Numbered from the stretch's first letter, positions 1 to 16,396 are shown. The stretch: 64,000 nucleotides of DNA from Gammaproteobacteria bacterium (GCA_035698525.1 DASSBR010000045.1:2290-66289), one strand, 5' to 3'. Notes: generated by a model from the letters alone, not told the origin. Translations and numbers: made by a program.

Positions 1-3000
1 GCTGGTTTTGCCGCCCAGAACCAAATGCCGTTGCTCGATCGGCTGACCGAAACTGTTGTAGATCGTTTCACCGTGACCGCCAGCGACGCCACCAGCGCTG
101 ACATCGACGGTCACTGCGTAGGCGCCGTCGTCTCCACAGTTGGGACTGCATGACCCGTAAGTCCAATCGGTTTCGCTGCCATCCGGCCGTGCCTCTCTGG
201 TCTTGCGGCCGAAGTCGTCGTAAGTCCAACTCGTTGTATGGCCATTGACGTCGGTGATGCTTTGTCTGACGCCGAGAGCGCGGTTCCACGCTTGGCTGGT
301 TATCTGTCCCAGTGCATTGGTGACCGTTTCCGGAAAATCGTGCGCCGTGCCATAGCCGATGGTCGTGTGGCGGCCCGCTAACCCGCTGCCGGTGGCATCG
401 ACGCCGATTTTGTTGCCATAACCGCCGTAGGTGTAGGTTGTCGTCAGCGGAAGATCGCCGCCGTAGCCGACGGTGACGCTATCAGTGCGGCAGTAATTGG
501 TGTTGTTGACGTACTTGGTCTTCCGCGAAACCTGGCTCCGGGCAACGGTGACCTGCGTCGGCAGACCGAAGCACCAGTTGGCGCTGTCCTCGCTGTAATC
601 CGTGCCAATTGTCGTTTGATAATCCGGCCCGCCGCCGATCAAGGGATGGGTGATAATCGTCCGCTCCGTCAACTCTCCATAGGTGTTGTAGGTATTTGTT
701 GTCGTAACCCTCACGAGACCTGCGCCGTCGAGGTCATTGCGATTTTTGATCGCCTCGCCGACATAGGCAAACCACGCGTCGCTGTGTGTGGACGCGGAAC
801 CGTATGTTTCGAACTGGTTGCTGAGGGTAGTGTCGCTGAGAGTGGAACCATCGGACGCGGTTACCTTGACTTCAATCGGCATGCCGGCGGTCCGGTAATC
901 CTGCGAGTAATAAGTCGTCGTCTCGATGCCATTACGGCTGTCGCTGGCGGAGACCTCGGCAAAACCCAGAAAGCCGCGGCCCTGGACATTAAGCCGCGCG
1001 TCGGTGTAGTGATAGGTGATGGTGTAGTCGCCGGCAGGATCATTAGCGGCATATTTCGAGACGACGCTTAAAGGCCCCTGAATATCGATATCGGGAAATT
1101 CTGCGGGGATTATTGCGTCGTCTCCGGCTGTATAAACGCTGCCAGTAAGCAGCGCATATTCCGGGGCGAAATAGTTGCCCAGGCCGTCAGTGATGCGCGT
1201 CACGAGGTCAGGTGTGACGCCCTTGTGCAGACGGTAGTGCCAATTTCCGCCTGAAGCCCAGATGATGTCCGTCAAGCCGTCGCCATCAAAGTCGGCCGTC
1301 CGTATCACATCGGCATTGACCGGTGCGACCAGTGTTACCGTTCCGACCTTGTTCAAACTGATGCCGTCGGACAACAGGACATCCCAGATGTTGCTGTTGT
1401 CGCCCTCGGGCAGCAGGAGGTCGTCCTTGCCGTCGGCGTTGTAGTCCAGGATTAATGCGCTGGCGGTGCCTGTATAGCTCAGGCCGGTATCCGTCTCGAT
1501 TGCCCCGTTGTAGTCAAATGCCGTTTGAGCCGCTGTGCCAGGCATCGTGTAGAGGTTCGAGACATCATAGGCAGGTGGTTCTGGCTCAAGCCACACGGCA
1601 TCCGTAACGCCATCGCCATTGTAATTGAGCAAAATGGGGATGTTACCGTCGTTGCCTGAGACGTTGGCTTCATTGCCGAGCGTGCCGTTGCCGAGCAGGT
1701 AGGTCTCGTAAAACTTCTGATACCCGTGACAGGAGCCGAGCGGGAGATTACTGCAAAGTTGGATGCGGAACAGCATCCGGCGCCTGAGCGCGCCGCCCTT
1801 GAAATCGACAAACGCGCCGGCAAGCTGGCGGGGCGGCAAGTAGCCGTCGCCCAGAGTGTAGGTTGTGTCGCTGTTCAAGACAGCAGCCCCACCGAAACCG
1901 TTTGTGGAATTCAGCCGCCGGTGGAGCTTGTCATCGCTGTCGTTATAAACGAGATCGTCCAGCCCATCGCCATCAATATCGACCAAGTCATAACTGCCAT
2001 CATAGCCAGTATCGACTATGCCTGTGTCTTGTTTGGTAAAACCGCTGGCGCTGCCTTCAAGGATTCGCCAATAACCATAATATGGGACGATGAGGTCGGC
2101 GTTGTTGTCGCCGTTGTAACGCAGCGTTAGCGCGTGTTTATAGCCGATGGATTTAAAAGCAGTGGGGGTCGGTGATGAATCAAGCCCGCTGGCGGTGCCA
2201 AAGATAATGTTCCAGTTGCCGTCGTCTATTGGGTAGACGAGGTCGTCCCGTCCGTCGCCATTGACGTCCATTATGTGTACGTAACCAGGTGCAACCGCGA
2301 TTGGTCCGGGGTTGACGCTACCAAATCCTGACGTGCCGTTTTGCCAACTGATGGTAGTCGGCGGCAGGCAATCGCCCGGGCCACATTCTTTTACCTGCAT
2401 CAGCCTGCTGCGGTGCGTGGGGCTGCTGGTTTCGTAGGTGAGCGTGTATTGCTGGACCAGGCTTCCGTTGTAGTTGACCGTGATGCTGTGCAACCGCTGC
2501 GTTTGCTGGATACGGGTTCCGGCAACATAGCTGACAATGGCGTCGACCCCGGTGGGCAGGGCCTCGTAGGCGAACTCGACGGTGTGCGAGGGCGCAACCG
2601 AGCCGTGGCCTGTGTAGCTTACCTTCGTCGGGCGATAGTCACCGTTCGTGGCATCGTTGGCGTACTCGAAACTGATGAAATTGCCGTAGGGATCAGTGAT
2701 CTTATCCAGAACCCAGACCCGTACCGCCGAACCCGTCGCGTTGAAAACCCGGGCGTCCGCCGTTTTGCCGTATTCGTAGGTTTTGCCGTCTGGAGTCTCG
2801 ACAGTAAAGTACTGCGGACCAGTATCGGGCGTTGTCCCGGCGCCGCCCGACGTGTGCGATGTGATGCGGAAAAACTGCTCCCGCTCCGTGCGGTAAGTGG
2901 CGCCCTCGGCGCCATACGTACCGCTCTTCAGGCGAAGCTTGTTGCCGTCAAGGCAGAAACTGTCGCTGCTTGTGAACGTGACGACGCCCACTGTCCCATC

Positions 3001-3300
3001 CTCGGCAATGGTCTTGCCACATCGGGTAATGGCCGAAAAGCCGGCGAGCGACCACCCATACCCCGCCCAGCCGTTGCCGGCGCCACTACTGTAGGCCAGA
3101 CCGAGATGAGGAGTAAGACCGTTGATACCCGGAGGCAGGTTGATCGGAATGGAATAAGTCGCCGCCCCCGTTGGGGTAACGGCGAAATGGGCAGGAATGG
3201 CGCCCACCGCAGCCTCGGCCGGCCCGCTCGGGGCCAGCACCAGTCCGAGTAACAACGTTGACCCGCGAAAAATGCGGCCAATCGAGATCCTGATCCCCAT
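1..3300 (-). CDS. Secreted SpvB/TcdB/FG-GAP/RHS-repeat protein (polymorphic toxin / Tc-toxin B-C type), 5' part only; continues past the window start
   Basis: The minus frame is open from the ATG at 3300-3298 to position 1 (1100 codons). It is absent from the ORF track only because it has no in-window stop, and no other minus ORF is listed in that frame. My translation: MGIRISIGRIFRGSTLLLGLVLAPSGPAEAAVG (signal peptide), an SpvB-like N-terminus (TGAATYSIPINLPPGINGLTPHLGLAYSSGAGNGWAGYGWSL), Asp-rich FG-GAP/VCBS-like repeats (DVNGDGRDDLV, DIDGDGLDDLV, DYNADGKDDLL, DFDGDGLTDII), a TcdB-mid-like segment (NVQGRGFLGFAEV) and YD/RHS repeats (TSWTYDDFGRKTREARPDGSETDWTY). AAGGGA lies 8 nt upstream of the ATG. 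Confidence 0.8.
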   Translation of the reverse strand, partial: MGIRISIGRIFRGSTLLLGLVLAPSGPAEAAVGAIPAHFAVTPTGAATYSIPINLPPGINGLTPHLGLAYSSGAGNGWAGYGWSLAGFSAITRCGKTIAEDGTVGVVTFTSSDSFCLDGNKLRLKSGTYGAEGATYRTEREQFFRITSHTSGGAGTTPDTGPQYFTVETPDGKTYEYGKTADARVFNATGSAVRVWVLDKITDPYGNFISFEYANDATNGDYRPTKVSYTGHGSVAPSHTVEFAYEALPTGVDAIVSYVAGTRIQQTQRLHSITVNYNGSLVQQYTLTYETSSPTHRSRLMQVKECGPGDCLPPTTISWQNGTSGFGSVNPGPIAVAPGYVHIMDVNGDGRDDLVYPIDDGNWNIIFGTASGLDSSPTPTAFKSIGYKHALTLRYNGDNNADLIVPYYGYWRILEGSASGFTKQDTGIVDTGYDGSYDLVDIDGDGLDDLVYNDSDDKLHRRLNSTNGFGGAAVLNSDTTYTLGDGYLPPRQLAGAFVDFKGGALRRRMLFRIQLCSNLPLGSCHGYQKFYETYLLGNGTLGNEANVSGNDGNIPILLNYNGDGVTDAVWLEPEPPAYDVSNLYTMPGTAAQTAFDYNGAIETDTGLSYTGTASALILDYNADGKDDLLLPEGDNSNIWDVLLSDGISLNKVGTVTLVAPVNADVIRTADFDGDGLTDIIWASGGNWHYRLHKGVTPDLVTRITDGLGNYFAPEYALLTGSVYTAGDDAIIPAEFPDIDIQGPLSVVSKYAANDPAGDYTITYHYTDARLNVQGRGFLGFAEVSASDSRNGIETTTYYSQDYRTAGMPIEVKVTASDGSTLSDTTLSNQFETYGSASTHSDAWFAYVGEAIKNRNDLDGAGLVRVTTTNTYNTYGELTERTIITHPLIGGGPDYQTTIGTDYSEDSANWCFGLPTQVTVARSQVSRKTKYVNNTNYCRTDSVTVGYGGDLPLTTTYTYGGYGNKIGVDATGSGLAGRHTTIGYGTAHDFPETVTNALGQITSQAWNRALGVRQSITDVNGHTTSWTYDDFGRKTREARPDGSETDWTYGSCSPNCGDDGAYAVTVDVSAGGVAGGHGETIYNSFGQPIEQRHLVLGGKTS

Positions 3301-3383: not shown

Positions 3384-4427
3384 TCAGGACCGATTCGGTG
3401 CCCGCGCGCCAGCAGTCGCACCGCCTTTGCGGCGGCTCTTGCCGGCTAGGACGGTGGCGAGGCTTGCGGCGACGTCGGCGATGCCGTCCGCGGCGTGCAC
3501 TCGTGGCTTCCAGTCGAGCAGTTCCTGCGCCTTGCGGATGTCGGGGCGGCGGCGGGTGGGATCGTCGGTGGGCAGCGGCTCGAACACGATGGACGATGCG
3601 CTCCGCAGTTGCTTGAGGACCATCTTCGCGATGTCGAGGACGCTGTATTCCTCGGGATTGCCGAGGTTTAACGGGTGCGGGTAGTCGATCTGCATCAGCC
3701 GCGCGATGCCTTCGACGAGATCGGAGACGTGCTGTAGGCTGCGCGTCTGGGTGCCGTCGCCGTAGACGGTCAGCGGCTCGTCGGTCAGCGCCTGGCGGAC
3801 GAAGTTGGTGACGACGCGGCCGTCGTACGGGTCCATCCGCGCGCCGTAGGTGTTGAAGATGCGCACAACGCGCACCGGCAGGCCATGCTCGCGGTGGTAG
3901 CTCATCGTCATCGCTTCCGAATAGCGCTTGCCTTCGTCGTAGACGCTGCGCGGCCCGGTCGGATTGACGTTGCCCCAGTAACGCTCCGTCTGCGGGTGCT
4001 CCAGCGCGTCGCCGTACACTTCGCTGGTGCTGGCCAGCAGGAACTGCGCGCCATTGCGCCGCGTCAGTTCCAGCAAATGATGGGTGCCGATGCTGTTGGC
4101 GAGCAGCGTTTCCAGCGGCCAGCGCAGGTATTTGGGCGGCGAGGCGGGCGAGGCGAAGTGCATCACCCAGTCGATCTTCGCCTTGATTGCCAGCGGCTTC
4201 GTAATGTCGTGCTCGATGAATCGGAAACGCGGCTCGCGGTTCAGGTGGGCGATGTTGCCCGGGCGGCCGGTGATGAAGTTGTCGACGCCGATGACGCGGA
4301 AACCGTCATCGAGCAGGCGGTCGACCAGGTGGCTGCCGATGAACCCGGCAGCCCCGGCGACTAGTACCGTGTGCGGGCGCGCACCGGCGGAGGGGCCATC
4401 CTTGGCCCTCGATGAAATCACTCTCAT
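3384..4427 (-). CDS. UDP-glucuronate decarboxylase (UDP-xylose synthase-like extended SDR)
   Basis: Rossmann motif VLVAGAAGFIGSHL. YDEGKRYSEAMTMSYHREHGLPVRVVRIFNTYGARM closely resembles the UXS family signature. Start moved to the ATG at 4427 (MRVISS...), which has AAGGAAG 6 nt upstream; the track ORF start at 4475 is probably too long. Confidence 0.8.
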   Translation of the reverse strand: MRVISSRAKDGPSAGARPHTVLVAGAAGFIGSHLVDRLLDDGFRVIGVDNFITGRPGNIAHLNREPRFRFIEHDITKPLAIKAKIDWVMHFASPASPPKYLRWPLETLLANSIGTHHLLELTRRNGAQFLLASTSEVYGDALEHPQTERYWGNVNPTGPRSVYDEGKRYSEAMTMSYHREHGLPVRVVRIFNTYGARMDPYDGRVVTNFVRQALTDEPLTVYGDGTQTRSLQHVSDLVEGIARLMQIDYPHPLNLGNPEEYSVLDIAKMVLKQLRSASSIVFEPLPTDDPTRRRPDIRKAQELLDWKPRVHAADGIADVAASLATVLAGKSRRKGGATAGARAPNRS

Positions 4428-4647
4428 CGGCATCTTCCTTGCGCTGGCAGACTGCCGCGCGGTTCGACACTGCAAATCCCTTGCAACGTGGGTTCAATAT
4501 AGCATCTACCGGTCTCTGAACCTGCTGGGGTGGGTGCCTATAGAAAATGCCCGCAACCGCAGGCGCTTGCATCCGCTGGTGAATTAATTAACACTGATGT
4601 TGCGGAATCAGGGATCGAATTCCAAACAAAATGCAGGGAACGCGTAA

Positions 4648-5772
4648 ATGAAAAACATCCTTATAGCGGGTGGCGCCGGCTTCATCGGCTCACACCTCGC
4701 ATCGGAGTTGCTGTGTCACGGTTATCGCGTTCGCGTACTCGATAACCTGACCCCCCAGGTTCACGGGACCCAGATCGATGGGGGGCAGCGGCGCCCAACC
4801 TACCTTGACGATGACGTAGAACTCCGCGTCGGCGACGTGCGCGACCTCGCCACGGTGCGCGACGCGCTCGACGGCATCGACGGCGTGTTCCACCTGGCCG
4901 CGGCGGTCGGCGTCGGCCAGAGCATGTACCAGCTCGAGCACTACACGTCGACTAATAACGTCGGCACGGCGGTGTTGCTCGAAGCGCTGGCGCGCCAGCC
5001 GGTCAAGAAGCTCGTGGTCGCCTCGAGCATGAGCCTCTATGGCGAGGGCCTCTATCACGACGAGACCGGAGCCACCGTCATCGCGCGGCGCGATCGCGAA
5101 CAACTGGCGCAGCGCGATTGGGAACCGCACGGGCCCAACGGGGAATCGCTGACGCCGGCGCCGACACCGGAGTCCAAGTCGCCGGACCTGAGTTCGGTTT
5201 ACGCGCTGTCGAAGTTCGACCAGGAACGGCTCTGCCTGATGGTCGGCGAAGCCTATGGCATACCCGCGACGGCGTTGCGCTTCTTCAATGTTTACGGCCC
5301 CTACCAAGCGTTGTCGAACCCGTATACCGGCGTGCTGGCGATCTTCGCCTCGCGCTGTCTGAACGACAGCCCGCCGCTGATCTTCGAAGACGGCGAGCAG
5401 CGCCGGGACTTCGTCAGCGTCCGTGATATCGCGCGCGCATCGAGGCTCGCGTATGAGAGCGATGCCGCGGACGGCCAGGTCTTCAATATCGGCAGCGGGC
5501 AGGCATTCACAATTTGCGAGATCGCGCGGAAGATCGCCGCCGCGACCGGCAAGCCCGGTATCGAGCCGGAAATCACCGGCCGCTACCGCGTCGGTGATAT
5601 CCGTCATTGCTTCGCCGACATCACCCGCGCGCGCGAGACGTTCGGCTACGAACCCGAAGTCACGCTCGACGACGGCCTCGCCGAAATGGCGGCGTGGCTG
5701 GCGACCGCGCAGGCGGTAGACCGCGTCGCCGAAGCGAGCGCCGAACTGGTGTCGCGGGGGCTGACGCTATGA
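4648..5772 (+). CDS. NAD-dependent sugar-nucleotide epimerase/dehydratase (extended SDR)
   Basis: GGAGFIGSHL glycine-rich motif, YxxxK catalytic motif (YALSKFDQE), FFNVYGP. Divergent from the UXS-like gene. Confidence 0.8.
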   Translation: MKNILIAGGAGFIGSHLASELLCHGYRVRVLDNLTPQVHGTQIDGGQRRPTYLDDDVELRVGDVRDLATVRDALDGIDGVFHLAAAVGVGQSMYQLEHYTSTNNVGTAVLLEALARQPVKKLVVASSMSLYGEGLYHDETGATVIARRDREQLAQRDWEPHGPNGESLTPAPTPESKSPDLSSVYALSKFDQERLCLMVGEAYGIPATALRFFNVYGPYQALSNPYTGVLAIFASRCLNDSPPLIFEDGEQRRDFVSVRDIARASRLAYESDAADGQVFNIGSGQAFTICEIARKIAAATGKPGIEPEITGRYRVGDIRHCFADITRARETFGYEPEVTLDDGLAEMAAWLATAQAVDRVAEASAELVSRGLTL

Positions 5773-7769
5773 ACCGCCCCGACATCGGCGTGCTGGAGTG
5801 GTTCTGGCTGAACGATCACGAGCGCGTCGAAGCCGCGATCGCTGAAATTCGCAGGCTCAACATCCGCCACCTCCGCACCGGCCTGTCGTGGGCGGACTAC
5901 CTCACCGACGACGGCCCCGCGTGGTTCGACTGGCTGCTCCCGAAGCTGGCGAAGGAAGCCGAGTTGCTGCCCTGCTTCGTCTATACCCCGCCGTCGCTCG
6001 GCGAGGCGCCGGCCACCAATTCGCCGCCGCGCAATGCCAAGGACTACGCCGATTTTATGGATCTATGCATCGATCGCTACGGCAAGCACTTCGAAGCAGT
6101 CGAGTTGTGGAACGAGCCCAACAACCTGCGCCAGTGGGATTATGAACTCGACCCGCACTGGACCAAGTTTGCGGCGACGATCGGCGGCGCGGCCTATTGG
6201 GCGCGCAAGCGCGGCAAGCGCACAGTACTCGGCGGCATGTCGCCGATCGATCCGAACTGGCTCAACACGATGCGCGACCGCGGCGTGCTGGACCACATCG
6301 ACATCGTCGGCGTACACGGCTTTCCGGACAGCTACGACGTAAAACATCGGCCGTGGACCAGCCACTTGCGCCGCGTGCGCGAACAGCTCGCACATTACGG
6401 CCTTGGGGCGAAAGTCTGGGTCACGGAGGCCGGGTACCCAACCTGGCGCCACGATGACTTCCGCCAGCTCGAGGCGTTCGCGGACTTGCTTGCGCTGCCG
6501 GTCGAACGCGTTTACTGGTACGGACTGTCGGACCTGCCGGCGGAGCGCCCGTCCGACGCGGGCTTTCACACCGACCCGCGCGATTATCACTTCGGCATCA
6601 AGACGGCGAAGGGCCAGGACAAGCTGCTCGCCCGCTGCTGGGCCGAGCGCGGCGTGGAAGGCGTGCGGGCGATGGCGCGGTGGCCGGAAATCACCCTCGA
6701 ATCGAGCCAGGCGCCGGTGCTGATCACCGGCGGCGCCGGCTTCGTCGGCACGAACCTGGCGGCGCGGCTGGTCGGCGAGGGCCGGGCCGTGCGCATCCTG
6801 GACAACCTGTCGCGGCCGGGCGTGGAACGGAACCTCGAATGGTTGCGGCAGCGCTGCGGCAAGTCGGTCGAGTTCATCGCCGGCGACACCCGCAACACCC
6901 GCGTTGTCGACCGCGCCGTCGACGGCTGCACGCAGATATTCCACCTAGCCGCGCAGGTCGCCGTGACGACGAGCCTCGAAGACCCGCGCGCCGATTTCGA
7001 CGTCAACCTCGGCGGCACGCTGAACGTGCTCGAAGCGGCGCGTCGCCAGCCGCACCCGCCGGGCATCGTGTTTACTTCGACCAACAAGGTTTATGGCGAG
7101 CTGGGCGATGTAGCGCTCGACGAAGAACAGACCCGCTACTGCCCGCATGCGGCGCATATCGCGCGCGCCGGCATCGACGAAAGCCGCCCGCTCGACTTCC
7201 ATAGCCCGTACGGCTGCTCGAAAGGCGGCGCGGACCAGTACATCCTCGACTACGCGCGCTGCTACGGCCTGCCGACCGTCGTGTTTCGCATGAGTTGCAT
7301 TTATGGCCCGCACCAGTTCGGCACTGAGGATCAAGGCTGGGTCGCGCATTTTCTGATTCGCGCGCGCGACGGCCAGCCGATCACGATCTACGGCGACGGC
7401 AAACAGGTGCGCGACGTGTTGTTCGTCGAAGACCTCGTATCGGCGTTCCTGCTCGCGGAAAGCAACATTGCGAACCTCGCCGGACAGGCGTTCAACATCG
7501 GCGGCGGACCGAAAAACGCGATCAGCCTGCTGGAATTGATCGACGTGATCGAAGAGCTGCAGGGCGTAAAGCCGCGGCTCGACTTCGCCGGCTGGCGCAC
7601 CGGCGATCAGCCATGGTACGTCTCCGACACCACCCGCTTCGGCGCCGCCACCGGCTGGCGGCCGCGGGTCCGCATGCGCGACGGCATCGGCCGCCTGCAC
7701 GACTGGCTCGAAGGCGCCCGTTCCGGCGCGCGGACGCGGCAACGCCTGCGACAGGCCGTCGCCCCGTGA
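5769..7769 (+). CDS. Fusion protein: N-terminal clan GH-A (TIM-barrel) glycoside-hydrolase-like domain plus C-terminal SDR epimerase (CDP-paratose/tyvelose 2-epimerase-like)
   Basis: Start placed at the ATG at 5769 (MNRPDIGVLEWF...), which forms an ATGA overlap with the upstream stop; the Arg-rich extension from 5607 overlaps the previous gene. The N-terminal half carries the GH-A acid/base motif ELWNEPNN and the nucleophile motif VWVTEAGYP. The C-terminal half has VLITGGAGFVGTNL and SPYGCSKGGADQYILDY...MSCIYGPHQFGTEDQGWVAHF. No signal peptide. Confidence 0.7.
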   Translation: MNRPDIGVLEWFWLNDHERVEAAIAEIRRLNIRHLRTGLSWADYLTDDGPAWFDWLLPKLAKEAELLPCFVYTPPSLGEAPATNSPPRNAKDYADFMDLCIDRYGKHFEAVELWNEPNNLRQWDYELDPHWTKFAATIGGAAYWARKRGKRTVLGGMSPIDPNWLNTMRDRGVLDHIDIVGVHGFPDSYDVKHRPWTSHLRRVREQLAHYGLGAKVWVTEAGYPTWRHDDFRQLEAFADLLALPVERVYWYGLSDLPAERPSDAGFHTDPRDYHFGIKTAKGQDKLLARCWAERGVEGVRAMARWPEITLESSQAPVLITGGAGFVGTNLAARLVGEGRAVRILDNLSRPGVERNLEWLRQRCGKSVEFIAGDTRNTRVVDRAVDGCTQIFHLAAQVAVTTSLEDPRADFDVNLGGTLNVLEAARRQPHPPGIVFTSTNKVYGELGDVALDEEQTRYCPHAAHIARAGIDESRPLDFHSPYGCSKGGADQYILDYARCYGLPTVVFRMSCIYGPHQFGTEDQGWVAHFLIRARDGQPITIYGDGKQVRDVLFVEDLVSAFLLAESNIANLAGQAFNIGGGPKNAISLLELIDVIEELQGVKPRLDFAGWRTGDQPWYVSDTTRFGAATGWRPRVRMRDGIGRLHDWLEGARSGARTRQRLRQAVAP

Positions 7770-8893
7770 CGGCGGAGCGCGCCAGCATCCAGCGCGTGCT
7801 GATGACCGCCGACACCGTCGGCGGCATCTGGCAATACGCGCTGGAACTCGCACGTGGGTTGAGCGAGCATGGCGTGAACGTGGCGCTGGCGACGCTGGGC
7901 GAGCAGCCGAACGCTGAACAGCGGCACGCCGCGGAAGCGATTTCCGGTCTCACACTGCACACCAGCGACTGGCCGCTTGAATGGACGAACCCGCCGTCGG
8001 ACGAACTCGATCACGCCGGCGAATGGCTGCTCGGTATCACCGCCGACTTCAATCCCGACGTTGTGCATCTCAACAACTATTTCTATGGCGCGCTGCGCTG
8101 GCCCGCGCCGGTGATGGTCGTCGCGCATTCCTGCGTTTATTCATGGTTCGAGGCGGTGCACGGCGCGTTGCCGCCGGAAGAGAGCTGGGGGCGGTATCGA
8201 AAAGGCGTGGATCGCGGCATCAGCGGCGCGGACATGCTGGTCGCGCCGAGCGCGGCGATGCTCGCGTCGATGGAAAGATTCTACGGTCCGCTTCACAACA
8301 CCCGCGTCATTGCCAACGGCCGGCGCAGTGCAGAGTTCCGGCCGCGCAACAAGCGCGGGCGCATTCTCGCCGCCGGCCGGCTGTGGGACGAAGGCAAGAA
8401 TATCCTCGCCCTCGCCCGCGTCGCGCCGCGTCTCACCTGGCCAGTACGCCTGGTCGGCGACGTGCATCATCCGAGCGGCCGCCGCAGCCAGTTCACCAAT
8501 GTCGAGTGGATCGGCTCCGCCGGCAGCCGCCGCATTGCACGCGAGTACGCGTCGGCAGGCATCTATGCCCTGCCCGCGCGCTACGAGCCGTTCGGCCTGA
8601 GCATCCTGGAAGCGGCGCTCGCCGGCTGCCCACTGGTGCTCGGCGACATCCCGAGCCTGCGCGAAGTCTGGGGCCGCGCCGCGTTGTACGTGAAACCGGA
8701 CGATGAACGGGGCCTGGCGAACACGCTGAACAACCTGATCGACAGCCCGATGGAACGCCAGTCATGGGGCGTGCGGGCGCGGCATCGCGCACGCCGCTAC
8801 AGCGCGGCGCGCATGACCAAGGGCTACCTGCAAGCATACGGCGATCTGCTTGACGCGCGCGAAACCAACCGGCGCATGGAGGTTTTTGGTTGA
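7766..8893 (+). CDS. Glycosyltransferase family 4 (GT-B)
   Basis: In-frame GTG at 7766 forms a GTGA overlap with the upstream stop (an alternative ATG lies about 36 nt downstream). TADTVGGIWQY N-terminus; E-x7-E-type C-terminal motif YEPFGLSILEAALAGCPLV. Confidence 0.75.
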   Translation: MTAERASIQRVLMTADTVGGIWQYALELARGLSEHGVNVALATLGEQPNAEQRHAAEAISGLTLHTSDWPLEWTNPPSDELDHAGEWLLGITADFNPDVVHLNNYFYGALRWPAPVMVVAHSCVYSWFEAVHGALPPEESWGRYRKGVDRGISGADMLVAPSAAMLASMERFYGPLHNTRVIANGRRSAEFRPRNKRGRILAAGRLWDEGKNILALARVAPRLTWPVRLVGDVHHPSGRRSQFTNVEWIGSAGSRRIAREYASAGIYALPARYEPFGLSILEAALAGCPLVLGDIPSLREVWGRAALYVKPDDERGLANTLNNLIDSPMERQSWGVRARHRARRYSAARMTKGYLQAYGDLLDARETNRRMEVFG

Positions 8894-10020
8894 TGCGTAT
8901 CGTCATGTTCTATCACTCGCTGGTGTCTGACTGGAACCATGGCAACGCGCATTTTCTCCGCGGCATCGCGACCGAACTCATAGAGCGCGGCCATAACGTG
9001 TGCGTTTACGAACCGGCGAACGGCTGGAGCCTCAGGCACCTGCGGCAGCAACGGGGCAACGCCGCGATTGCCGCCTTTCACCAGCATTACCCGCGCCTCA
9101 AGACGCATTTTTATGAGCCTGATCGTGTTGACCTTGAACGCGCGCTGGACGGTGCCGATCTCGTGCTGGTGCACGAATGGAACGATCCGGCGCTGATCGG
9201 CCGCATCGGCCAGCACCGCGCGCGGCATCGCTACCGGCTGCTGTTTCACGACACGCACCATCGCTCGGTGTCCGACGCCGCCGGCATCGCACGCTGCAAG
9301 CTCGATGACTACGACGGCGTGCTCGCCTTCGGCGAAGCCATCCGCCAGCGCTACCTCGACGCCGGTTGGGCGCGGCACGTCTGGACCTGGCACGAAGCCG
9401 CCGACACGCGCGTATTCAAGCCGCTGCCCGACGAACCACGTGAACGCGATGTGGTCTGGATCGGCAACTGGGGCGACGGCGAGCGCGACCGGGAGCTGAA
9501 CGAATTTCTGCTCCAACCGGCCGCGGCGCTGAAACTCAGCGCGACCATCCACGGCGTGCGTTATCCGCGCCCGGTGTTGCGCAAGCTCAATGCCGCCGGC
9601 TTCGACTATCGCGGCTGGCTCCCCAACTTTGACGCGCCGCGGGCCTACGCGCGCCACCGCGTGACGGTGCATGTACCGCGCCGCCCTTACGCGCGCGCCC
9701 TCCCCGGCATCCCGACGATCCGCATGTTCGAAGCGCTGGCGTGCGGCATCCCGCTGGTCTCCGCGCCGTGGCAGGACTGCGAGCATTTATTCACGCCCGG
9801 CGAGGATTACCTGGTCGCGAAGAATGGCGCTGAAATGCGCAACCATTTGCGCACGATCCTCAACGAGCCGGAACGCGCGGCAGCGCTCGCCGCCCACGGC
9901 CGCCGCACGATTCTCGCCCGCCACACCTGCGCGCACAGGGCCGATGAACTGCTGGCGCCTGTCACACCGCAGACTGAAGAAATTCCGGACGCCCTCTCCC
10001 TAAGGAAGAGGGTTGGGTGA
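8893..10020 (+). CDS. CgeB-family (Glyco_trans_1_2 / DUF3880-like) glycosyltransferase, paralog 1
   Basis: MRIVMFYHSLVSDWNHGNAHFLRGIATELIERGH N-terminus. C-terminal RMFEALACGIPLVS...GEDYLVA...ILARHTCAHRADELL is typical of the CgeB-like family. The ATG overlaps the upstream TGA. The last ~10 codons are encoded by a degenerate REP copy. Confidence 0.7.
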   Translation: MRIVMFYHSLVSDWNHGNAHFLRGIATELIERGHNVCVYEPANGWSLRHLRQQRGNAAIAAFHQHYPRLKTHFYEPDRVDLERALDGADLVLVHEWNDPALIGRIGQHRARHRYRLLFHDTHHRSVSDAAGIARCKLDDYDGVLAFGEAIRQRYLDAGWARHVWTWHEAADTRVFKPLPDEPRERDVVWIGNWGDGERDRELNEFLLQPAAALKLSATIHGVRYPRPVLRKLNAAGFDYRGWLPNFDAPRAYARHRVTVHVPRRPYARALPGIPTIRMFEALACGIPLVSAPWQDCEHLFTPGEDYLVAKNGAEMRNHLRTILNEPERAAALAAHGRRTILARHTCAHRADELLAPVTPQTEEIPDALSLRKRVG

Positions 10021-10024
10021 GGGG
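9992..10024. repeat. Degenerate REP-like element copy
   Basis: ccctctccctaaggaagagggttgggtgagggg resembles the CCCCTCTCCC-N4-GGGAGAGGGG-N3-GGGTGAGGG family seen at 11090, 11173 and 62196. It spans the stop codon of the CgeB-like paralog 1 gene. Confidence 0.45.
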
Positions 10025-10033
10025 TGTCATGCC

Positions 10034-11212
10034 ATGAAAATCGCCTTCTTTGGTTCGAGTATCGTCTCCGCCTGGTGGAACGGCGCGGCAACCTATTACC
10101 GCGGCCTCCTCCGCGAACTGGCGGCGCTCGGCCACGACATTACCTTTTACGAACCGGCTGTTTTCGAGCGCCATCAGCACCGCGACATCGATGACCCGGA
10201 GTGGGCACGGATCGTCATTTACGCCCCGGACGATGTGCGCCGCATGCTGCACGACGCATCCGACGCCGACGTGATCGTCAAGGCCAGCGGCGTCGGCGCG
10301 AACGACGCCATGCTTGAGCGCGCCGTACTCACGCTCAAGCGACCCGACAACCAGGTCATCTTCTGGGATGTCGATGCGCCGGCCACGCTGGAGCGGCTGG
10401 AGCACGACCGGGACGATCCCTTCCGCGTGCTGGTGCCGGAGTACGACCTGGTGCTGACCTACGGCGGCGGCCCACCGGTCGTCGCTGCCTATGAGGGCTT
10501 CGGCGCGCAACGCTGCGTGCCGATTTATAACGCGCTCGACCGAACCACCCATTTCCCGGTTGAACCGGACGAACGCTTCATGGCCGATCTCGTCTTTATC
10601 GGCAACCGGCTGCCGGACCGCGAGGCGCGCGTCGACGAGTTCTTCTTCAACGCAGCCGAATGCTCGCCGCAACGACAATTCCTGCTCGGCGGCAACGGCT
10701 GGCAGGAACGCGCCGCGCCGGTCAATGTCCGCCTGCTCGGCCACGTCTATACGCGCGACCACAATGCGATTAACTCAAGCGCACTCGCCGTGCTCAACAT
10801 CAGCCGCGCGAGCATGGCGCGCGTCGGCTACTCGCCCGCAACGCGCGTGTTCGAGGCGGCCGGCGCGGGGGCATGTTTGATTACAGATGCGTGGACGGGA
10901 ATTGAAGAATTTTTTGAGCCGGGTGAGGAGATTCTGGTGGCGGAGTGCGGTGCCGAAGTTGCCGATCTGTTAAACGATCTGACTGCCGAAGATGCGCGGC
11001 GGATCGGCGACGCAGCGCTCGCGCGCGTGCGGGCGGATCATACGTATGCCAGCCGGGCCGCTGAAGTTGACGCGCTCCTCCGTTCCAGTCCCCTCTCCCT
11101 CCGGGAGAGGGCCAGGGTGAGGGTTCCCAGTAGCGACAACGCGTTGTATTACGACCGCCATCTCGAAACCGACCCTCACCCCAACCCCTCTCCCGAAGGG
11201 AGAGGGGCTTAA
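10034..11212 (+). CDS. CgeB-family glycosyltransferase, paralog 2 (3' end reads through two REP copies)
   Basis: MKIAFFGSSIVSAWWNGAATYYRGLLRELAALGH parallels paralogs 1 and 3. The C-terminal part has VFEAAGAGACLITD...GEEILVA...HTYASRAAEV. The tail SSPLSLRERARVRV...DPHPNPSPEGRGA is REP-encoded. Confidence 0.7.
   Translation: MKIAFFGSSIVSAWWNGAATYYRGLLRELAALGHDITFYEPAVFERHQHRDIDDPEWARIVIYAPDDVRRMLHDASDADVIVKASGVGANDAMLERAVLTLKRPDNQVIFWDVDAPATLERLEHDRDDPFRVLVPEYDLVLTYGGGPPVVAAYEGFGAQRCVPIYNALDRTTHFPVEPDERFMADLVFIGNRLPDREARVDEFFFNAAECSPQRQFLLGGNGWQERAAPVNVRLLGHVYTRDHNAINSSALAVLNISRASMARVGYSPATRVFEAAGAGACLITDAWTGIEEFFEPGEEILVAECGAEVADLLNDLTAEDARRIGDAALARVRADHTYASRAAEVDALLRSSPLSLRERARVRVPSSDNALYYDRHLETDPHPNPSPEGRGA
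11090..11123 (+). repeat. REP-like hairpin element (forward copy)
   Basis: cccctctccctccgggagagggccagggtgaggg: a 10-bp stem (cccctctccc/gggagaggg) plus a GGGTGAGGG tail. Near-identical to 62196-62230. Confidence 0.7.
11173..11207 (-). repeat. REP-like hairpin element (inverted copy)
   Basis: ccctcaccccaacccctctcccgaagggagagggg is the reverse-complement orientation of the same family. Together with 11090-11123 it forms a larger inverted repeat around a ~49-nt spacer. Confidence 0.7.
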
Positions 11213-11232: not shown

Positions 11233-12321
11233 ATGAACATCGTCATTTTAGGCCTCTCCATCACCTCTTCCTGGGGCAACGGTCACGCCACCACCTACCG
11301 CGGCCTCGTCCGCGAACTGACGCGTCAGGGCCACCAAGTCCTGTTCCTCGAACGCGACATGCCGTGGTACGCGGCCGAGCGCGATCTGCCCGATCCGCCG
11401 TTCGGCGAGACGCGTCTGTACGATTCCGTCCCCACCCTCAAGCGCAGCCACGCCGATGCGATTCGTGCCGCCGACGCCGTCATCGTCGGTTCCTACGTGC
11501 CGGAAGGCGTCACCGTCGCCGAATGGGTGCTCGACAAGGCGCGCGGCTGCGTTGCGTTTTACGACATCGACACACCGGTCACACTCGCGAAGCTCGACGC
11601 CGGCGACTACGAATACCTGGAGCCGGAGCTGTTGCCGCGCTTCGATCTGTATCTTTCGTTCACCGGCGGGCCGGTGCTCAAACGGCTGGAAAACGACTAC
11701 GGCGCGCGCCGTGCGCGAGCGCTGTATTGCTCGGTTGATCCGGAAATTCATTATCCCACCCAGGCATCCGCCCGCTGGGATCTCGGCTATCTCGGCACCT
11801 TCAGCGTCGACCGCCAGGCGCGCGTCGACCGCCTGCTGCTTGAACCGGCGCGGCGCGCGGCGCAACGACGCTTCGCGGTCGCAGGCGCGCAGTTCCCGGC
11901 GGACACCGATTGGCCGGACAACGTCGAGCATATCCAGCACATCGCGCCAGCCGCGCACGGCGGCTTTTACAATGCGCAGCGCTTTACCCTGAACGTCACC
12001 CGCGATGCGATGATCGCCGCCGGGTTCGCGCCGAGCGTGCGCCTGTTCGAAGCAGCCGCCTGCGCCGTGCCGGTCATCTCCGACCGCTGGAACGGACTCG
12101 ACACGTTCTTTGAGCCTGAACGGGACATTCTGATCGCGGAAGATACGGACACTGTACTCGACTATCTGGACGAGTTGCCGGAACGGGAGCGCAAGGCGAT
12201 CGGCCTGCGCGCACGCGAGCGGGTGCTTGCCGCCCATACGGCCGCCCATCGCGCGCACGAACTGGTCGAATATCTGCGGTCAAGCCTGCCGCGTCGCGTT
12301 GCCAGCGCTGCAGCGCAATGA
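11233..12321 (+). CDS. CgeB-family glycosyltransferase, paralog 3
   Basis: MNIVILGLSITSSWGNGHATTYRGLVRELTRQGH; LFEAAACAVPVISD...ERDILIA...VLAAHTAAHRAHELV. Confidence 0.7.
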   Translation: MNIVILGLSITSSWGNGHATTYRGLVRELTRQGHQVLFLERDMPWYAAERDLPDPPFGETRLYDSVPTLKRSHADAIRAADAVIVGSYVPEGVTVAEWVLDKARGCVAFYDIDTPVTLAKLDAGDYEYLEPELLPRFDLYLSFTGGPVLKRLENDYGARRARALYCSVDPEIHYPTQASARWDLGYLGTFSVDRQARVDRLLLEPARRAAQRRFAVAGAQFPADTDWPDNVEHIQHIAPAAHGGFYNAQRFTLNVTRDAMIAAGFAPSVRLFEAAACAVPVISDRWNGLDTFFEPERDILIAEDTDTVLDYLDELPERERKAIGLRARERVLAAHTAAHRAHELVEYLRSSLPRRVASAAAQ

Positions 12322-13061
12322 ACGATCTCGCGACCCTCCAGTCGCCCGGCGCCTCGCCGCCGGGTCCGCTGGGCGACCAGTTGCAGCGCCTCGGCCCCTG
12401 GTTTCACAACCTGCATCTGCCGGGCGGCGTGCAAACGGCGCCCGATCATCCGCTGGGCGATTTTCCAAAGTTCAAATGGAAGGAAATCGCACCGCACCTG
12501 CCAAACGATCTACACGGCTGGCGGGTTCTCGACATCGGCTGCAACGCCGGCTTCTACAGTTTTGAACTTGCGCGCCGTGGTGCCAACGTGGTCGGCATCG
12601 ACGAAGATCTGCACTATCTCCGCCAGGCCCGATGGGTGCGGCGGCGCTTTGGCCTCGGCGAATGCGTCCGCTTCCGCCAGATGAGTGTTTACGAACTGTC
12701 GGGCTGGCAGGAAAGTTTCGACATGGTGCTGTTCCTCGGCGTGTTCTACCACCTGCGTTATCCGCTGCTGGCGCTCGACCGGATCGCGGCGAGAACGCGC
12801 CGCATGCTCGTGTTTCAGAGCCTGCGACTCCCCGGCGAGGCAGTGGCGACGGATGTGAAGGGTAAGGCGTATCTCGAAATTGACGATCTGGCGAAGCCGG
12901 ACTGGCCGCGCATGGCATTCGTGGAACATGACTTCGCCGGCGATGCGAGTAACTGGTGGATTCCGAATCGGGCGGCGATGGAGGCGCTGTTGCGGAGCGC
13001 GGGATTTAATATCGTCGCATCGCCTGCCAAAGGAACTTACGTTTGCGAGCCGAAGCGTTAG
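12318..13061 (+). CDS. Class I SAM-dependent methyltransferase, CmoB/DUF1698-like
   Basis: ATGA overlap with the upstream gene. WFHNLHLPGGVQT...WRVLDIGCNAGFYSFELARRGANVVGID (SAM motif I), FDMVLFLGVFYHLRYPLLAL, WWIPN, all typical of the CmoB-like/DUF1698 family. Confidence 0.7.
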   Translation: MNDLATLQSPGASPPGPLGDQLQRLGPWFHNLHLPGGVQTAPDHPLGDFPKFKWKEIAPHLPNDLHGWRVLDIGCNAGFYSFELARRGANVVGIDEDLHYLRQARWVRRRFGLGECVRFRQMSVYELSGWQESFDMVLFLGVFYHLRYPLLALDRIAARTRRMLVFQSLRLPGEAVATDVKGKAYLEIDDLAKPDWPRMAFVEHDFAGDASNWWIPNRAAMEALLRSAGFNIVASPAKGTYVCEPKR

Positions 13062-15525: not shown

Positions 15526-15972
15526 TCAGCTACGAAATTGCTGCCCCACTTCGACCAGCAGCCGACGAAGATCGCGGCTTGCGCCGGCGGCAACGCCCAG
15601 CGCAAGTCCTAGCGCGACAGCACCTTTCGGATGGCTGAAGATTGAGCGGCTGATATCTGAATCCAGGCGGGTATCGATCTCGGTTTCGATCTGATCGGCC
15701 CACGTTTGCGGATCCTTGAAGCGGTTGACCTGATGCTTGAGCCCATGATGCCAGCGGGTGAACGCGCCGACAATCATCGTGAACAAGCCCGCGCCAATGA
15801 ACGCCCCGCCGCCGGTTGCGAGTGCAGACGCCCACGGCGGCAGGCCGAACGCGGCGATGAGACCGCGATACAAGGCGTAGGCGAGAAACGCCACCCCCGC
15901 CATCGCGATGAGAATCGAAGTGCCTGTTACCGTAATCGCGACAGCAATCGGCAAAGGCCTTTTTTTAGCCAC
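15526..15972 (-). CDS. YqjE-like (holin-X/phage_holin_3_6-type) small membrane protein
   Basis: 148 aa with two long hydrophobic helices, immediately downstream of a YqjD/ElaB-like gene as in the E. coli yqjD-yqjE arrangement. Confidence 0.5.
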   Translation of the reverse strand: MAKKRPLPIAVAITVTGTSILIAMAGVAFLAYALYRGLIAAFGLPPWASALATGGGAFIGAGLFTMIVGAFTRWHHGLKHQVNRFKDPQTWADQIETEIDTRLDSDISRSIFSHPKGAVALGLALGVAAGASRDLRRLLVEVGQQFRS

Positions 15973-15984
15973 GACCGCAGCCGG

Positions 15985-16260
15985 CTATTTTCGGTCGAGA
16001 AGTTTGCCGAGCACAAAGCCAACGCCGAAGGCCGTCAGCACGCTGATCAGCGGGCGTTCCTCGATCTGTTCCTCGACGGCGGCGGCGCCGCGCTCGGCCT
16101 GGTGGCGCACTTTTTCGCCTGCCTCGCGCGCCCTTGCGTAGCCCGCGCGGGCCTGCGATTCAGCCTGGCGCTTGATCGATTCGGCGAGCGATTTGATGTC
16201 GGATCTGAGCGCATCCACATCGCCCTTCAGCGCGTGGATGTCCTTTTCGTGGTCGGCCAT
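15985..16260 (-). CDS. DUF883 family membrane-anchored ribosome-associated protein (YqjD/ElaB/YgaM-like)
   Basis: 91 aa: a coiled, charged N-terminus (DIHALKGDVDALRSDIKSLAESIKRQ) and a C-terminal anchor RPLISVLTAFGVGFVLGKLL, as is typical for ElaB/YqjD. Confidence 0.7.
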   Translation of the reverse strand: MADHEKDIHALKGDVDALRSDIKSLAESIKRQAESQARAGYARAREAGEKVRHQAERGAAAVEEQIEERPLISVLTAFGVGFVLGKLLDRK

Positions 16261-16396
16261 ATGGCAACCTCCATGTTCATTCGTTGTACGTCCATGTTCC
16301 CTGAATGTTCAGGATATTACTTTTATAGCACAGCGTCAGGAACGTGGCTATTGTGCTAGAGTTTGCCCGACCATGGAAACCGCAAGGCTGAAGACG

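Follow-up and report, generated by a model that had tools for sequence, protein, structure and literature searches.

A predicted cytoplasmic clan GH-A barrel fused to a tyvelose-epimerase-like domain is part of a conserved and widespread gene cassette

In a 64,000-nt stretch of DNA from a Gammaproteobacteria bacterium (GCA_035698525.1, DASSBR010000045.1:2290-66289; the whole stretch is called the window here), the gene at 5769..7769 (+) encodes a protein of 666 aa in which a glycoside hydrolase (GH) barrel of clan GH-A is followed by a short linker and by an extended short-chain dehydrogenase/reductase (SDR) domain similar to CDP-tyvelose 2-epimerases (TyvE). Judged by its sequence, the protein is a genuine two-domain enzyme of the cytoplasm, and its barrel carries the standard machinery of retaining glycosidases with Glu116 as the predicted acid/base and Glu220 as the predicted nucleophile. 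Relatives were found to be encoded at no fewer than 587 loci when one genome per species was scanned, and in all loci retrieved for the analysis of gene order the fusion belongs to the same biosynthetic cassette. Based on these data we favour, with about even confidence, the view that the barrel is a cytoplasmic retaining beta-glycosidase or transglycosidase, which processes the glycan made by the cassette and is tethered to the enzyme providing a C2-epimerised sugar donor. An exact-sequence lookup of the 666-aa protein returned no record, and our literature searches found no published study of the fusion or of its cassette.

The gene is a single open reading frame (ORF) of 666 continuous codons, closed by the stop codon TGA at 7767-7769. 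Its ATG at 5769 overlaps the stop codon of the upstream SDR gene (ATGA), and a GGGGG run is located approximately 9 nt 5' of it. A longer frame initiated by TTG at 5607 was considered and rejected: it would add an Arg/Pro-rich leader lying within the upstream gene, and the homologs begin at the position of the ATG. The AlphaFold2 (AF2) model of the full-length protein has a predicted local distance difference test score (pLDDT) of 95.2 and a predicted TM-score (pTM) of 0.92. The pLDDT falls to 86 solely in the block of residues 301-310, which is a part of the connection between the two domains. According to the secondary structure of the model, this connection (residues 286-315; 6624..6713, +) consists of a long helix (286-303) and a short linker.

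In the fusion protein, neither a signal peptide nor a membrane-spanning helix is apparent. The top Kyte-Doolittle mean in a window of 19 residues is 1.46, and in the model the first strand of the barrel already starts at residue 5. Since no segment of 19 residues is as hydrophobic as a membrane helix and the fold is entered immediately, secretion is not suggested. An initial annotation made from the DNA alone had described one gene for a protein without signal peptide, which contains the motifs ELWNEPN, WVTEAGYP, GGAGFVGTNL and YGCSK. We found the gene and all four motifs as described there, and the absence of a signal peptide agrees with the hydropathy profile and with the early start of strand 1.

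Residues 1-285 (5769..6623, +) form a minimal (beta/alpha)8 barrel of clan GH-A, which is similar to PslG and GH39, as revealed by the AF2 model analysed with DSSP, by Foldseek and by a family profile. Modelled alone, the N-terminal domain reached a pLDDT of 93.9 and showed eight strand-helix units, with strands at residues 5-10, 34-40, 65-71, 110-113, 151-154, 179-184, 215-221 and 247-251. With the barrel as query, Foldseek retrieved 372 PDB matches at E<=0.001, of which the top 50 were nearly all GH-A barrels. PslG ranked first (E value 7e-17, TM-score 0.73, 22% identity), followed by other GH39 structures and then by GH2, GH5, GH42, GH53, GH35 and GH79 barrels. At the level of sequence, a search of the PDB with the single N-terminal domain retrieved PslG alone and weakly (E value 0.027), with the NEP and TE motifs paired with the catalytic Glu residues of PslG. 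When a profile built from 32 members of the barrel family was used against the PDB, PslG was matched over the whole barrel with an E value of 1.7e-9, again with NEP at E165 and TE at E276. The profile also matched the GH39 structure 5JVK (2.5e-5) and, more weakly, GH1 beta-glucosidases and GH39 xylosidases (XynB, 0.006-0.02). In Pfam, the N-terminal domain (residues 1-316) had no match even at E<=10, Glyco_hydro_39 included, and in NCBIfam it had none even at E<=1. Thus, the family assignment rests on the profile search of the PDB and on the fold searches. Some relatives of the barrel match the Pfam models Glyco_hydro_1, Glyco_hydro_cc or Glyco_hydro_53 faintly.

The two candidate catalytic residues lie where they are expected in this clan. 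The motif ELWNEPN (residues 112-118; 6102..6122, +) contains the putative acid/base Glu116 after Asn115 and aligns with VWNEPN of PslG (E165), and the motif WVTEAGYP (residues 217-224; 6417..6440, +) contains the putative nucleophile Glu220 and aligns with WSTEWG of PslG (E276). In the AF2 model, N115-E116 sits directly after strand 4 and E220 is inside the C-terminal end of strand 7. In the model, this placement is the defining geometry of clan GH-A (the 4/7 superfamily), in agreement with the initial annotation, which had proposed both catalytic signatures from their sequence and had made the assignment dependent on their positions at the catalytic strands. In PslG, the exchange of both residues (E165Q/E276Q) leads to a catalytically inactive protein, which is the standard inactive variant of this enzyme (PMC4928890).

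Residue conservation was counted in 76 full-length fusions. Glu116 is kept in 73 and Glu220 in 74 of them, and E112, W114 and N115 in 75 or 76. Invariant is a group of residues at the rim of the barrel (R36, E112, D128, H183, D255 and D269), while D161 and K285 are present in 75 fusions. R36, H183 and W250, all of them conserved, may correspond to the clan-wide Arg of strand 2, His of strand 6 and Trp of strand 8. Since both catalytic Glu residues are kept at such frequencies, most of the fusions are probably active enzymes.

The C-terminal part (residues 316-666; 6714..7766, +) was assigned by Pfam, PDB and Foldseek searches to the extended SDRs and, among them, to the C2-epimerases of nucleoside diphosphate (NDP) sugars of the TyvE family. 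Pfam sees only residues 317-640 of the fusion, as Epimerase (4e-50) and GDP_Man_Dehyd. In the PDB, the SDR domain matched TaTyvE (9RL0) with an E value of 6e-93 and StTyvE (1ORR) with 1e-91, and the next-best match, among 4-epimerases and dehydratases, had an E value of 2.5e-36. The model of the domain was superimposed by Foldseek on 1ORR with a TM-score of 0.94, a root-mean-square deviation of 1.5 A and 46% identity; identity to the CDP-tyvelose 2-epimerases is approximately 46-50% over the whole domain. These values bear out the earlier proposal of a complete extended SDR most similar to CDP-paratose/tyvelose 2-epimerases.

The domain shares with StTyvE and TaTyvE, which belong to SDR1E, nearly all features to which a study of TaTyvE assigns a function (PMC13098431). 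The NAD-binding GxxGxxG (G321, G324, G327) is located in GGAGFVGTNL (residues 321-330; 6729..6758, +), and its Gly residues are invariant in all 76 fusions. The catalytic triad corresponds to T438, Y481 and K485, kept in 75-76 of the 76 fusions. Of these, T438 is in the sequence STNK (7077..7088, +), whose TNK segment 438-440 corresponds to Thr124-Asn125-Lys126 of TaTyvE and is kept in 75 fusions, and Tyr481 and Lys485 are in YGCSK (residues 481-485; 7209..7223, +), also kept in 75. The KQVRD and RxxDQ nucleotide contacts are conserved, and the beta-hairpin specific for TyvE is present in the model (strands 450-452 and 457-459). The substrate-closing loop GTEDQGW (residues 518-524; 7320..7340, +) contains Gln522, which aligns with Q205 of TaTyvE. 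By these features the domain is, at the level of sequence, a TyvE-type C2-epimerase in its mechanism, NAD-dependent, and a member of a clade of its own.

Two positions differ from the characterized enzymes. The VAM segment of TaTyvE is VAV at 397-399, a conservative change, and the cytosine-capping Tyr203 of TaTyvE is replaced by Glu520, while Asp204 is kept as Asp521. The resulting (T/N)EDQGW is found in 75 of the 76 fusions and in all of 120 unfused SDRs from cassettes of this type, whereas TaTyvE and StTyvE have TYDQGW. In TaTyvE, Tyr203 together with Asp204 forms a lid on the cytosine of CDP, and TNK, VAM and Gln205 are residues of the sugar pocket (PMC13098431). According to the same study from 2026, the conversion of CDP-lyxose into CDP-xylose by TaTyvE is 14-fold faster than that of CDP-mannose into CDP-glucose (PMC13098431). 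Due to the replacement of the capping Tyr, the nucleotide specificity of the cassette SDRs may differ from CDP. Further, no genes for CDP-3,6-dideoxyhexose synthesis (rfbF, rfbG, rfbH, rfbS) were found in the operon of the window or in 80 related loci. Since CDP-hexose and dideoxyhexose genes are missing from the context, in contrast to StTyvE and TaTyvE, and a UDP-xylose synthase gene is located there instead, and since Tyr203 is exchanged for Glu, the physiological substrate of the SDR domain is probably neither CDP-paratose nor CDP-tyvelose.

The fusion is found in at least ten phyla. ORF length was checked at 81 loci, and in 74 of them, which come from independent assemblies, the fusion is a single ORF of more than 600 aa (range 650-730 aa). 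The other seven loci contain shorter ORFs, some of which are ended by a contig edge, while some are apparently frameshifted. Gene order was counted in the 80 loci retrieved, and in each of these the TyvE-like domain directly follows the barrel. The nearest relatives are encoded by metagenome-assembled genomes (MAGs) of soil Gammaproteobacteria (84-85% identity), followed by Alkalilimnicola, Ectothiorhodospiraceae and Coralloluteibacterium, which makes a gammaproteobacterial origin of the window probable. Other hosts among the Pseudomonadota are Rhizobium, Cereibacter, Paracoccus, Falsiroseomonas and Cellvibrio, and Bacteroidota with the fusion include Pontibacter, Dyadobacter, Pedobacter and Salinimicrobium. 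Further hosts belong to Cyanobacteria, Planctomycetota, Verrucomicrobiota, Armatimonadota, Chloroflexota, Desulfobacterota, Myxococcota, Actinomycetota and Acidobacteriota. In a library of 1.84 billion cluster representatives (clustered at 50% identity), 219 matched at E<=1e-30, and a cut-off of E<=1e-10 gave 2,668. Full-length fusions (625-716 aa) and stand-alone proteins (310-350 aa) are among them, besides others. The initial annotation had called the fusion unexpected. This has to be toned down, as the architecture is conserved and widespread.

A first protein search had listed only broken fusions of up to 553 aa and had suggested that many homologs are stand-alone proteins; this idea was overturned by the full-length fusions in the genomes and in the library. 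Many of the fused homologs listed there are truncated or have frameshifted tails, examples of broken fusions being P0005, P0013, P0025, P0047 and L002 (10001..12065), and P0013 and some other matches that seemed to be stand-alone are such broken fusions. The finished Rhizobium etli plasmids carry the fusion, and the copy on p42b of strain CFN42 (RHE_RS22270; WP_011427519.1) is annotated as 'NAD-dependent epimerase/dehydratase family protein' with nothing on the barrel. Other labels in databases are 'NAD-dependent epimerase/dehydratase', 'CDP-paratose 2-epimerase' and 'GDP-mannose 4,6-dehydratase'. The last two are misleading and conceal the hydrolase domain. In JGI annotations even fragments consisting of the barrel only are called 'CDP-paratose 2-epimerase', a label which was evidently inherited from fused genes.

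In the window, the fused gene takes second place in a compact, translationally coupled operon of eight genes without membrane proteins, in which the distances between neighbours are -4, +38 (or an overlap), -4, -8, +20 and -4 nt. The first gene (4648..5772, +) encodes an SDR similar to UDP-hexose 4-epimerases with an insert of approximately 40 aa, which splits the Pfam Epimerase match; its best PDB relatives are 4zrm and 6wjb. Such a gene is directly 5' of the fusion in 78 of the 80 loci. Divergently oriented is a gene for UDP-glucuronate decarboxylase, the UDP-xylose synthase (UXS; 3384..4475, -), with human UXS1 (2b69, 4gll; E value 6e-101) as the PDB match. It adjoins the cassette in 31 of the 80 loci, and the R. 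etli ortholog is annotated alike. Downstream of the fusion, a GT4 glycosyltransferase (7766..8893, +; Pfam Glyco_transf_4 and Glycos_transf_1) is encoded, which is conserved in the cassette and whose start codon is uncertain (GTG at 7766, GTG at 7796 or ATG at 7802). It is followed by a tandem of three paralogous CgeB-like glycosyltransferase genes (PF13524) of the GT-B type at 8890..10020 (+; Pfam 1e-39), 10013..11212 (+; 5e-38) and 11233..12321 (+; 7e-39), which are present in 70, 69 and 65 of the 80 loci, respectively. The first of them had no relative in the PDB by sequence search. The last gene of the operon (12318..13061, +) encodes a methyltransferase of the family TIGR04290 ('meth_Rta_06860'), with an NCBIfam score of 328.5 bits at a curated cut-off of 300 bits; it was found in at least 52 of the 80 loci, and the family is named for a Ramlibacter gene.

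The order SDR, GH-SDR fusion, GT4, three CgeB-like glycosyltransferases and TIGR04290 methyltransferase is common to all 80 loci and to R. etli p42b. Thus, the location in a biosynthetic operon, which was proposed already in the initial annotation, is supported by the tightly overlapping neighbours, and the fusion is conserved together with its operon. Frequent additions are a Zn-dependent dehydrogenase (59 of the 80 loci) and a Gfo/Idh/MocA oxidoreductase (47 of 80). A xylose context is provided by UXS and sometimes by a UDP-glucose dehydrogenase, which are attached to the cassette. No gene for a flippase, a polymerase, a priming transferase, a transporter or exporter, or a lipid-carrier function is conserved across the 80 loci, and because genes for export, polymerization and priming are missing, the cassette seems to operate wholly at the cytoplasmic face. 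A conserved nucleotidyltransferase gene that would reveal the nucleotide of the NDP-sugar was also not found in these loci; the one neighbouring the R. etli cassette is not conserved elsewhere. In the window, a separate Wzx-type polysaccharide cluster is located at approximately 17.5-31.5 kb, and we considered export of the cassette product by its gene products. As a general feature this was rejected, since unrelated genes (UDG, GST and BrkB) stand between, the G+C content of the cluster is lower and the two are unlinked in other genomes. As an additional observation, two Tepidisphaeraceae MAGs harbour a second, unfused GH-like gene besides the fused copy (L015, 11971..12858; L041, 15709..16581); it is located at the far end of the cassette, its product has the normal strand order and it is approximately 42% identical to the window barrel.

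In Ramlibacter tataouinensis and at two further loci, a gene of its own encodes the TyvE-like SDR, which is 65-69% identical to the SDR domain of the window. Four loci with an unfused SDR were examined, and at three of them a GH-like gene is located in an adjacent, divergent operon. These are L003 (R. tataouinensis, CP000245; 6527..7474, -), L004 (6571..7512, -) and L087 (6337..7263, -), and the operon consists of genes for inositol-3-phosphate synthase, the GH-like protein and a histidine phosphatase. The GH-like proteins are circularly permuted barrels: they begin with the part corresponding to residues 108-293 (strands 4-8) and continue with the part corresponding to residues 4-105 (strands 1-3), without loss of either catalytic motif. 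Permuted barrels recur in Betaproteobacteria and Bacteroidota. Further permuted proteins are P0282, P0316, P0327, P0331 and P0365, and one Dyadobacter locus (L053) encodes one fused and one permuted barrel, the latter at about 2328..3206 (+). Stand-alone relatives also keep the NEP and TE motifs. Cassettes of the Ramlibacter type end in a gene for a NadM-like nucleotidyltransferase/Nudix protein (L003, 18378..19382; L004, 19628..20665) and also include a UDP-glucose dehydrogenase gene; neither of these genes is present in the window or in the 80 fused loci. CDP-inositol was considered as a general explanation of the cassette and dropped, because neither the window nor any of the 80 fused loci contains the genes for Ino1, the histidine phosphatase and NadM/Nudix. 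A further group of relatives (P0336, P0350, P0353 and similar proteins of 420-455 aa) is a subfamily with the motifs ELWNEWN and WLTEYG, in which the N-terminus is extended by approximately 60 residues and strand 7 is preceded by an insertion; the three proteins named have no Pfam match.

We propose that the cassette would build a methylated oligosaccharide or glycoconjugate, either soluble or facing the cytoplasm, which possibly contains pentose. The SDR domain would supply an NDP-sugar donor epimerised at C2, and the barrel would cleave or transfer a linkage of the beta-D or alpha-L type in the product by double displacement. Its action could serve for trimming, chain-length control or recycling, in the way proposed for PslG and for further hydrolases whose genes belong to polysaccharide operons, and the fusion would keep both activities at a ratio of 1:1 and in the same place. 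That the barrel is functionally tied to the cassette is suggested by the constant gene order in all 80 loci and by the presence of a GH-like gene in the vicinity when the SDR is unfused. Several observations weigh against this proposal. Two fusions retain the barrel without either catalytic Glu, one in a Planctomycetales MAG (L052; E116A and E220A, WNAANS and ITAAG) and one in a Bryobacteraceae MAG (L066; E116S and E220Q, WNSPNH and ITQTG); these barrels are 48-49% identical to that of the window. A fusion of a Chthoniobacterales MAG (L051) has the exchange E116K, and L051, P0047 and P0067 read WNKPK. Losing both residues in L052 and L066 and the acid/base in L051 means that catalysis is dispensable somewhere, although according to their sequences these proteins look like secondary pseudo-enzyme derivatives. 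Further, H183-G184 is followed by an invariant Phe (HGFP), where clan GH-A enzymes usually have a Tyr behind the His of strand 6. One cassette (L088) has no GH-like gene within a distance of 10 kb. Finally, GT4 enzymes are retaining and make alpha-linkages, so that a beta-linked substrate of the barrel would have to come from the CgeB-like transferases.

The same conserved retaining machinery would also serve a synthetic transglycosidase, in which a glycosyl-enzyme is formed on Glu220 and the sugar is then passed to another sugar or to a cyclitol, thus building, branching or rearranging a linkage. In line with this possibility, the operon in which the gene is located is biosynthetic and not catabolic in all 80 loci, net hydrolysis would seem wasteful in a cytoplasm which contains the nascent product, and the inositol-3-phosphate synthase and histidine phosphatase encoded together with the permuted form could be the source of an acceptor. 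However, the cassette already has four glycosyltransferases, the inositol genes occur neither in the window nor in the 80 fused loci, and no sequence feature found here sets transglycosidases apart from hydrolases. We consider a synthetic role less likely. The pseudo-enzymes mentioned above lead to another explanation, namely that the barrel is mainly non-catalytic and binds glycans or acts as a scaffold, holding the acceptor or the growing chain, or organising the epimerase oligomer and the glycosyltransferases. The pTM of the full-length model suggests a fixed interface with the SDR domain, and the Pfam GH models miss the barrel, both of which would fit such a role. Against it speaks that at least 96% of the fusions, as well as relatives of the stand-alone and the permuted kind, have retained both Glu residues and the NEP and TE context across at least ten phyla. 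If catalysis were not under selection, such conservation would be difficult to understand, and the losses look secondary; a scaffold function is in our opinion rather unlikely. Of the roles suggested in the initial annotation (transglycosylase, trimming enzyme or binding module), a catalytic one is thus favoured for most lineages by the conserved catalytic residues, but the analysis did not separate the three.

Covalent fusion may also be taken as a hint at consecutive steps on one substrate. The protein would then be a hydrolysing epimerase, its SDR domain epimerising the NDP-sugar at C2 and its barrel splitting the bond between sugar and nucleotide to set free the sugar for a later step, following the logic of PseG, NeuC and LegG. 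The lack of a nucleotidyltransferase in the cassette, together with the NadM/Nudix gene of the Ramlibacter-type clusters, could be read in this way. However, NDP-sugars are alpha-D or beta-L (axial) glycosyl phosphates, while the known retaining enzymes of clan GH-A, GH39 included, act on beta-D or alpha-L (equatorial) glycosides, so that the anomeric geometry is opposite to that of the substrates known for these families. The four glycosyltransferases of the operon need activated donors, and the known NDP-sugar hydrolases of the PseG, NeuC and LegG kind are enzymes with a GT-B fold. This makes a hydrolysing epimerase very improbable. Even less can be said for an artefact, in which sequencing or assembly errors merged two adjacent genes. 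It is true that many database homologs are split or frameshifted, but the frame is continuous, the single ORF is found in 74 independent assemblies, including the finished R. etli plasmids, and full-length fusions are representatives in the library. The chance that the two halves are in fact separate genes is practically nil. Returning to the favoured glycan-processing role, a more far-reaching version can be formulated, which we regard as unlikely to hold in all its parts. The cassette would make a previously unrecognised cytoplasmic, O-methylated pentose oligosaccharide or glycoconjugate, inositol-anchored in the Ramlibacter type, in at least ten phyla. The fusion would be a new bifunctional enzyme, consisting of a nucleotide-switched (Tyr203 to Glu) TyvE-like domain performing a new C2 epimerisation, for example of UDP-xylose to UDP-lyxose, and of a barrel that founds a cytoplasmic GH (sub)family, which also exists in circularly permuted form, and acts as a processing transglycosidase or hydrolase.

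Among known systems, PslG of Pseudomonas aeruginosa (GH39; 4ZN2, 5BX9, 9G17) is the best match of the N-terminal domain in both structure and sequence, and the window gene resembles it also in being encoded within a biosynthetic and not a catabolic sugar operon. On the other hand, identity is only approximately 22%, and the protein of the window is fused to an epimerase and has neither a signal peptide nor a membrane anchor. In the structures of PslG, XynB and IDUA, the barrel is accompanied by a C-terminal beta-sandwich domain. Such an appendage is missing here: in the model, a single helix (286-303) separates the barrel from the Rossmann fold, which starts at residue 316, and the stand-alone relatives have a length of only 310-350 aa. 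Since the beta-sandwich and a Pfam match to GH39 are lacking and Phe replaces the Tyr after the strand-6 His, in which the barrel also differs from PslG, we call it GH39-related and PslG-like and do not file it as GH39. The GH39 beta-xylosidases (XynB; 1W91, 1UHV, 6YYH) and the GH39 enzyme of B. cellulosilyticus (5JVK) are of the same clan and rank next among the fold matches. The sequence similarity to the beta-xylosidases is weak, however, and those enzymes are catabolic and have extra domains. In view of the link between the cassette and UDP-xylose, a xyloside-type substrate of the barrel is conceivable. With StTyvE and TaTyvE the comparison was made above; in contrast to them, the protein of the window has a GH region of 315 residues at its N-terminus. 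The permuted relatives of R. tataouinensis TTB310 share the barrel family, the motifs and the cassette neighbourhood with the fusion but differ in strand order, in being encoded by a separate gene and in the unfused epimerase. Some cytoplasmic hydrolases are encoded along with pathways for cytoplasmic glycans or compatible solutes. An example is MmpH of mycobacteria, which is encoded together with the genes for the synthesis of an intracellular methylated glycan, the methylmannose polysaccharide. Its likeness to the cassette is one of genetic logic.

The two domains are of known kinds, and the fusion is already present in public databases under generic or misleading names. Thus, it is not categorically new. 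What appears to be undescribed is the family of cytoplasmic, minimal PslG-like barrels, its obligate pairing with a distinct TyvE-like clade, the circular permutants and the cassette found across phyla. Hydrolases encoded in polysaccharide operons, such as PslG, BcsZ, PelA and AlgL, are a recurring puzzle, and all well-studied ones act outside of the cytoplasm. The fusion family would place a PslG-like barrel inside the cytoplasm and join it covalently to a donor-sugar epimerase. A cassette which lacks genes for export and lipid carriers and which is found from Rhizobium and Cereibacter to Bacteroidota, Cyanobacteria, Planctomycetota and Actinomycetota points to a widespread glycan located intracellularly or at the inner leaflet. 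Tractable hosts for knock-outs of the cassette exist, notably R. etli CFN42 with plasmid p42b. Further, the barrel offers a compact GH-A scaffold of approximately 285 residues with natural circular permutants, and the TyvE-like clade with its altered nucleobase cap could be useful for the engineering of C2-epimerases for UDP- and GDP-sugars.

Several other features of the window were recorded. The ORFs at 2341..3252, 15706..16359 and 17567..19627 (all +; 303, 217 and 686 aa) had no Pfam match at E<=0.001, and the first of them, which is located just upstream of the UDP-xylose synthase gene, had no match in NCBIfam either. The Wzx-type cluster has a G+C content of 53-58% and contains genes for a GT2 (19666) and a GT4 glycosyltransferase (20539), a flippase (22510), two further GT4 enzymes (27091 and 30340) and an acyltransferase-3 protein (29116). 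Inside this cluster, an ORF of 790 aa (24722..27094, +) has a radical-SAM domain in its N-terminal part and a polysaccharide pyruvyl-transferase domain in its C-terminal part. At the 3' side of the cluster (31582..34537, +), an MshE-type ATPase of type II secretion systems/type IV pili (T2SSE and MshEN) and a T2SSF platform protein are encoded, and an AT3-SGNH O-acyltransferase is encoded on the opposite strand (36015..38066, -).

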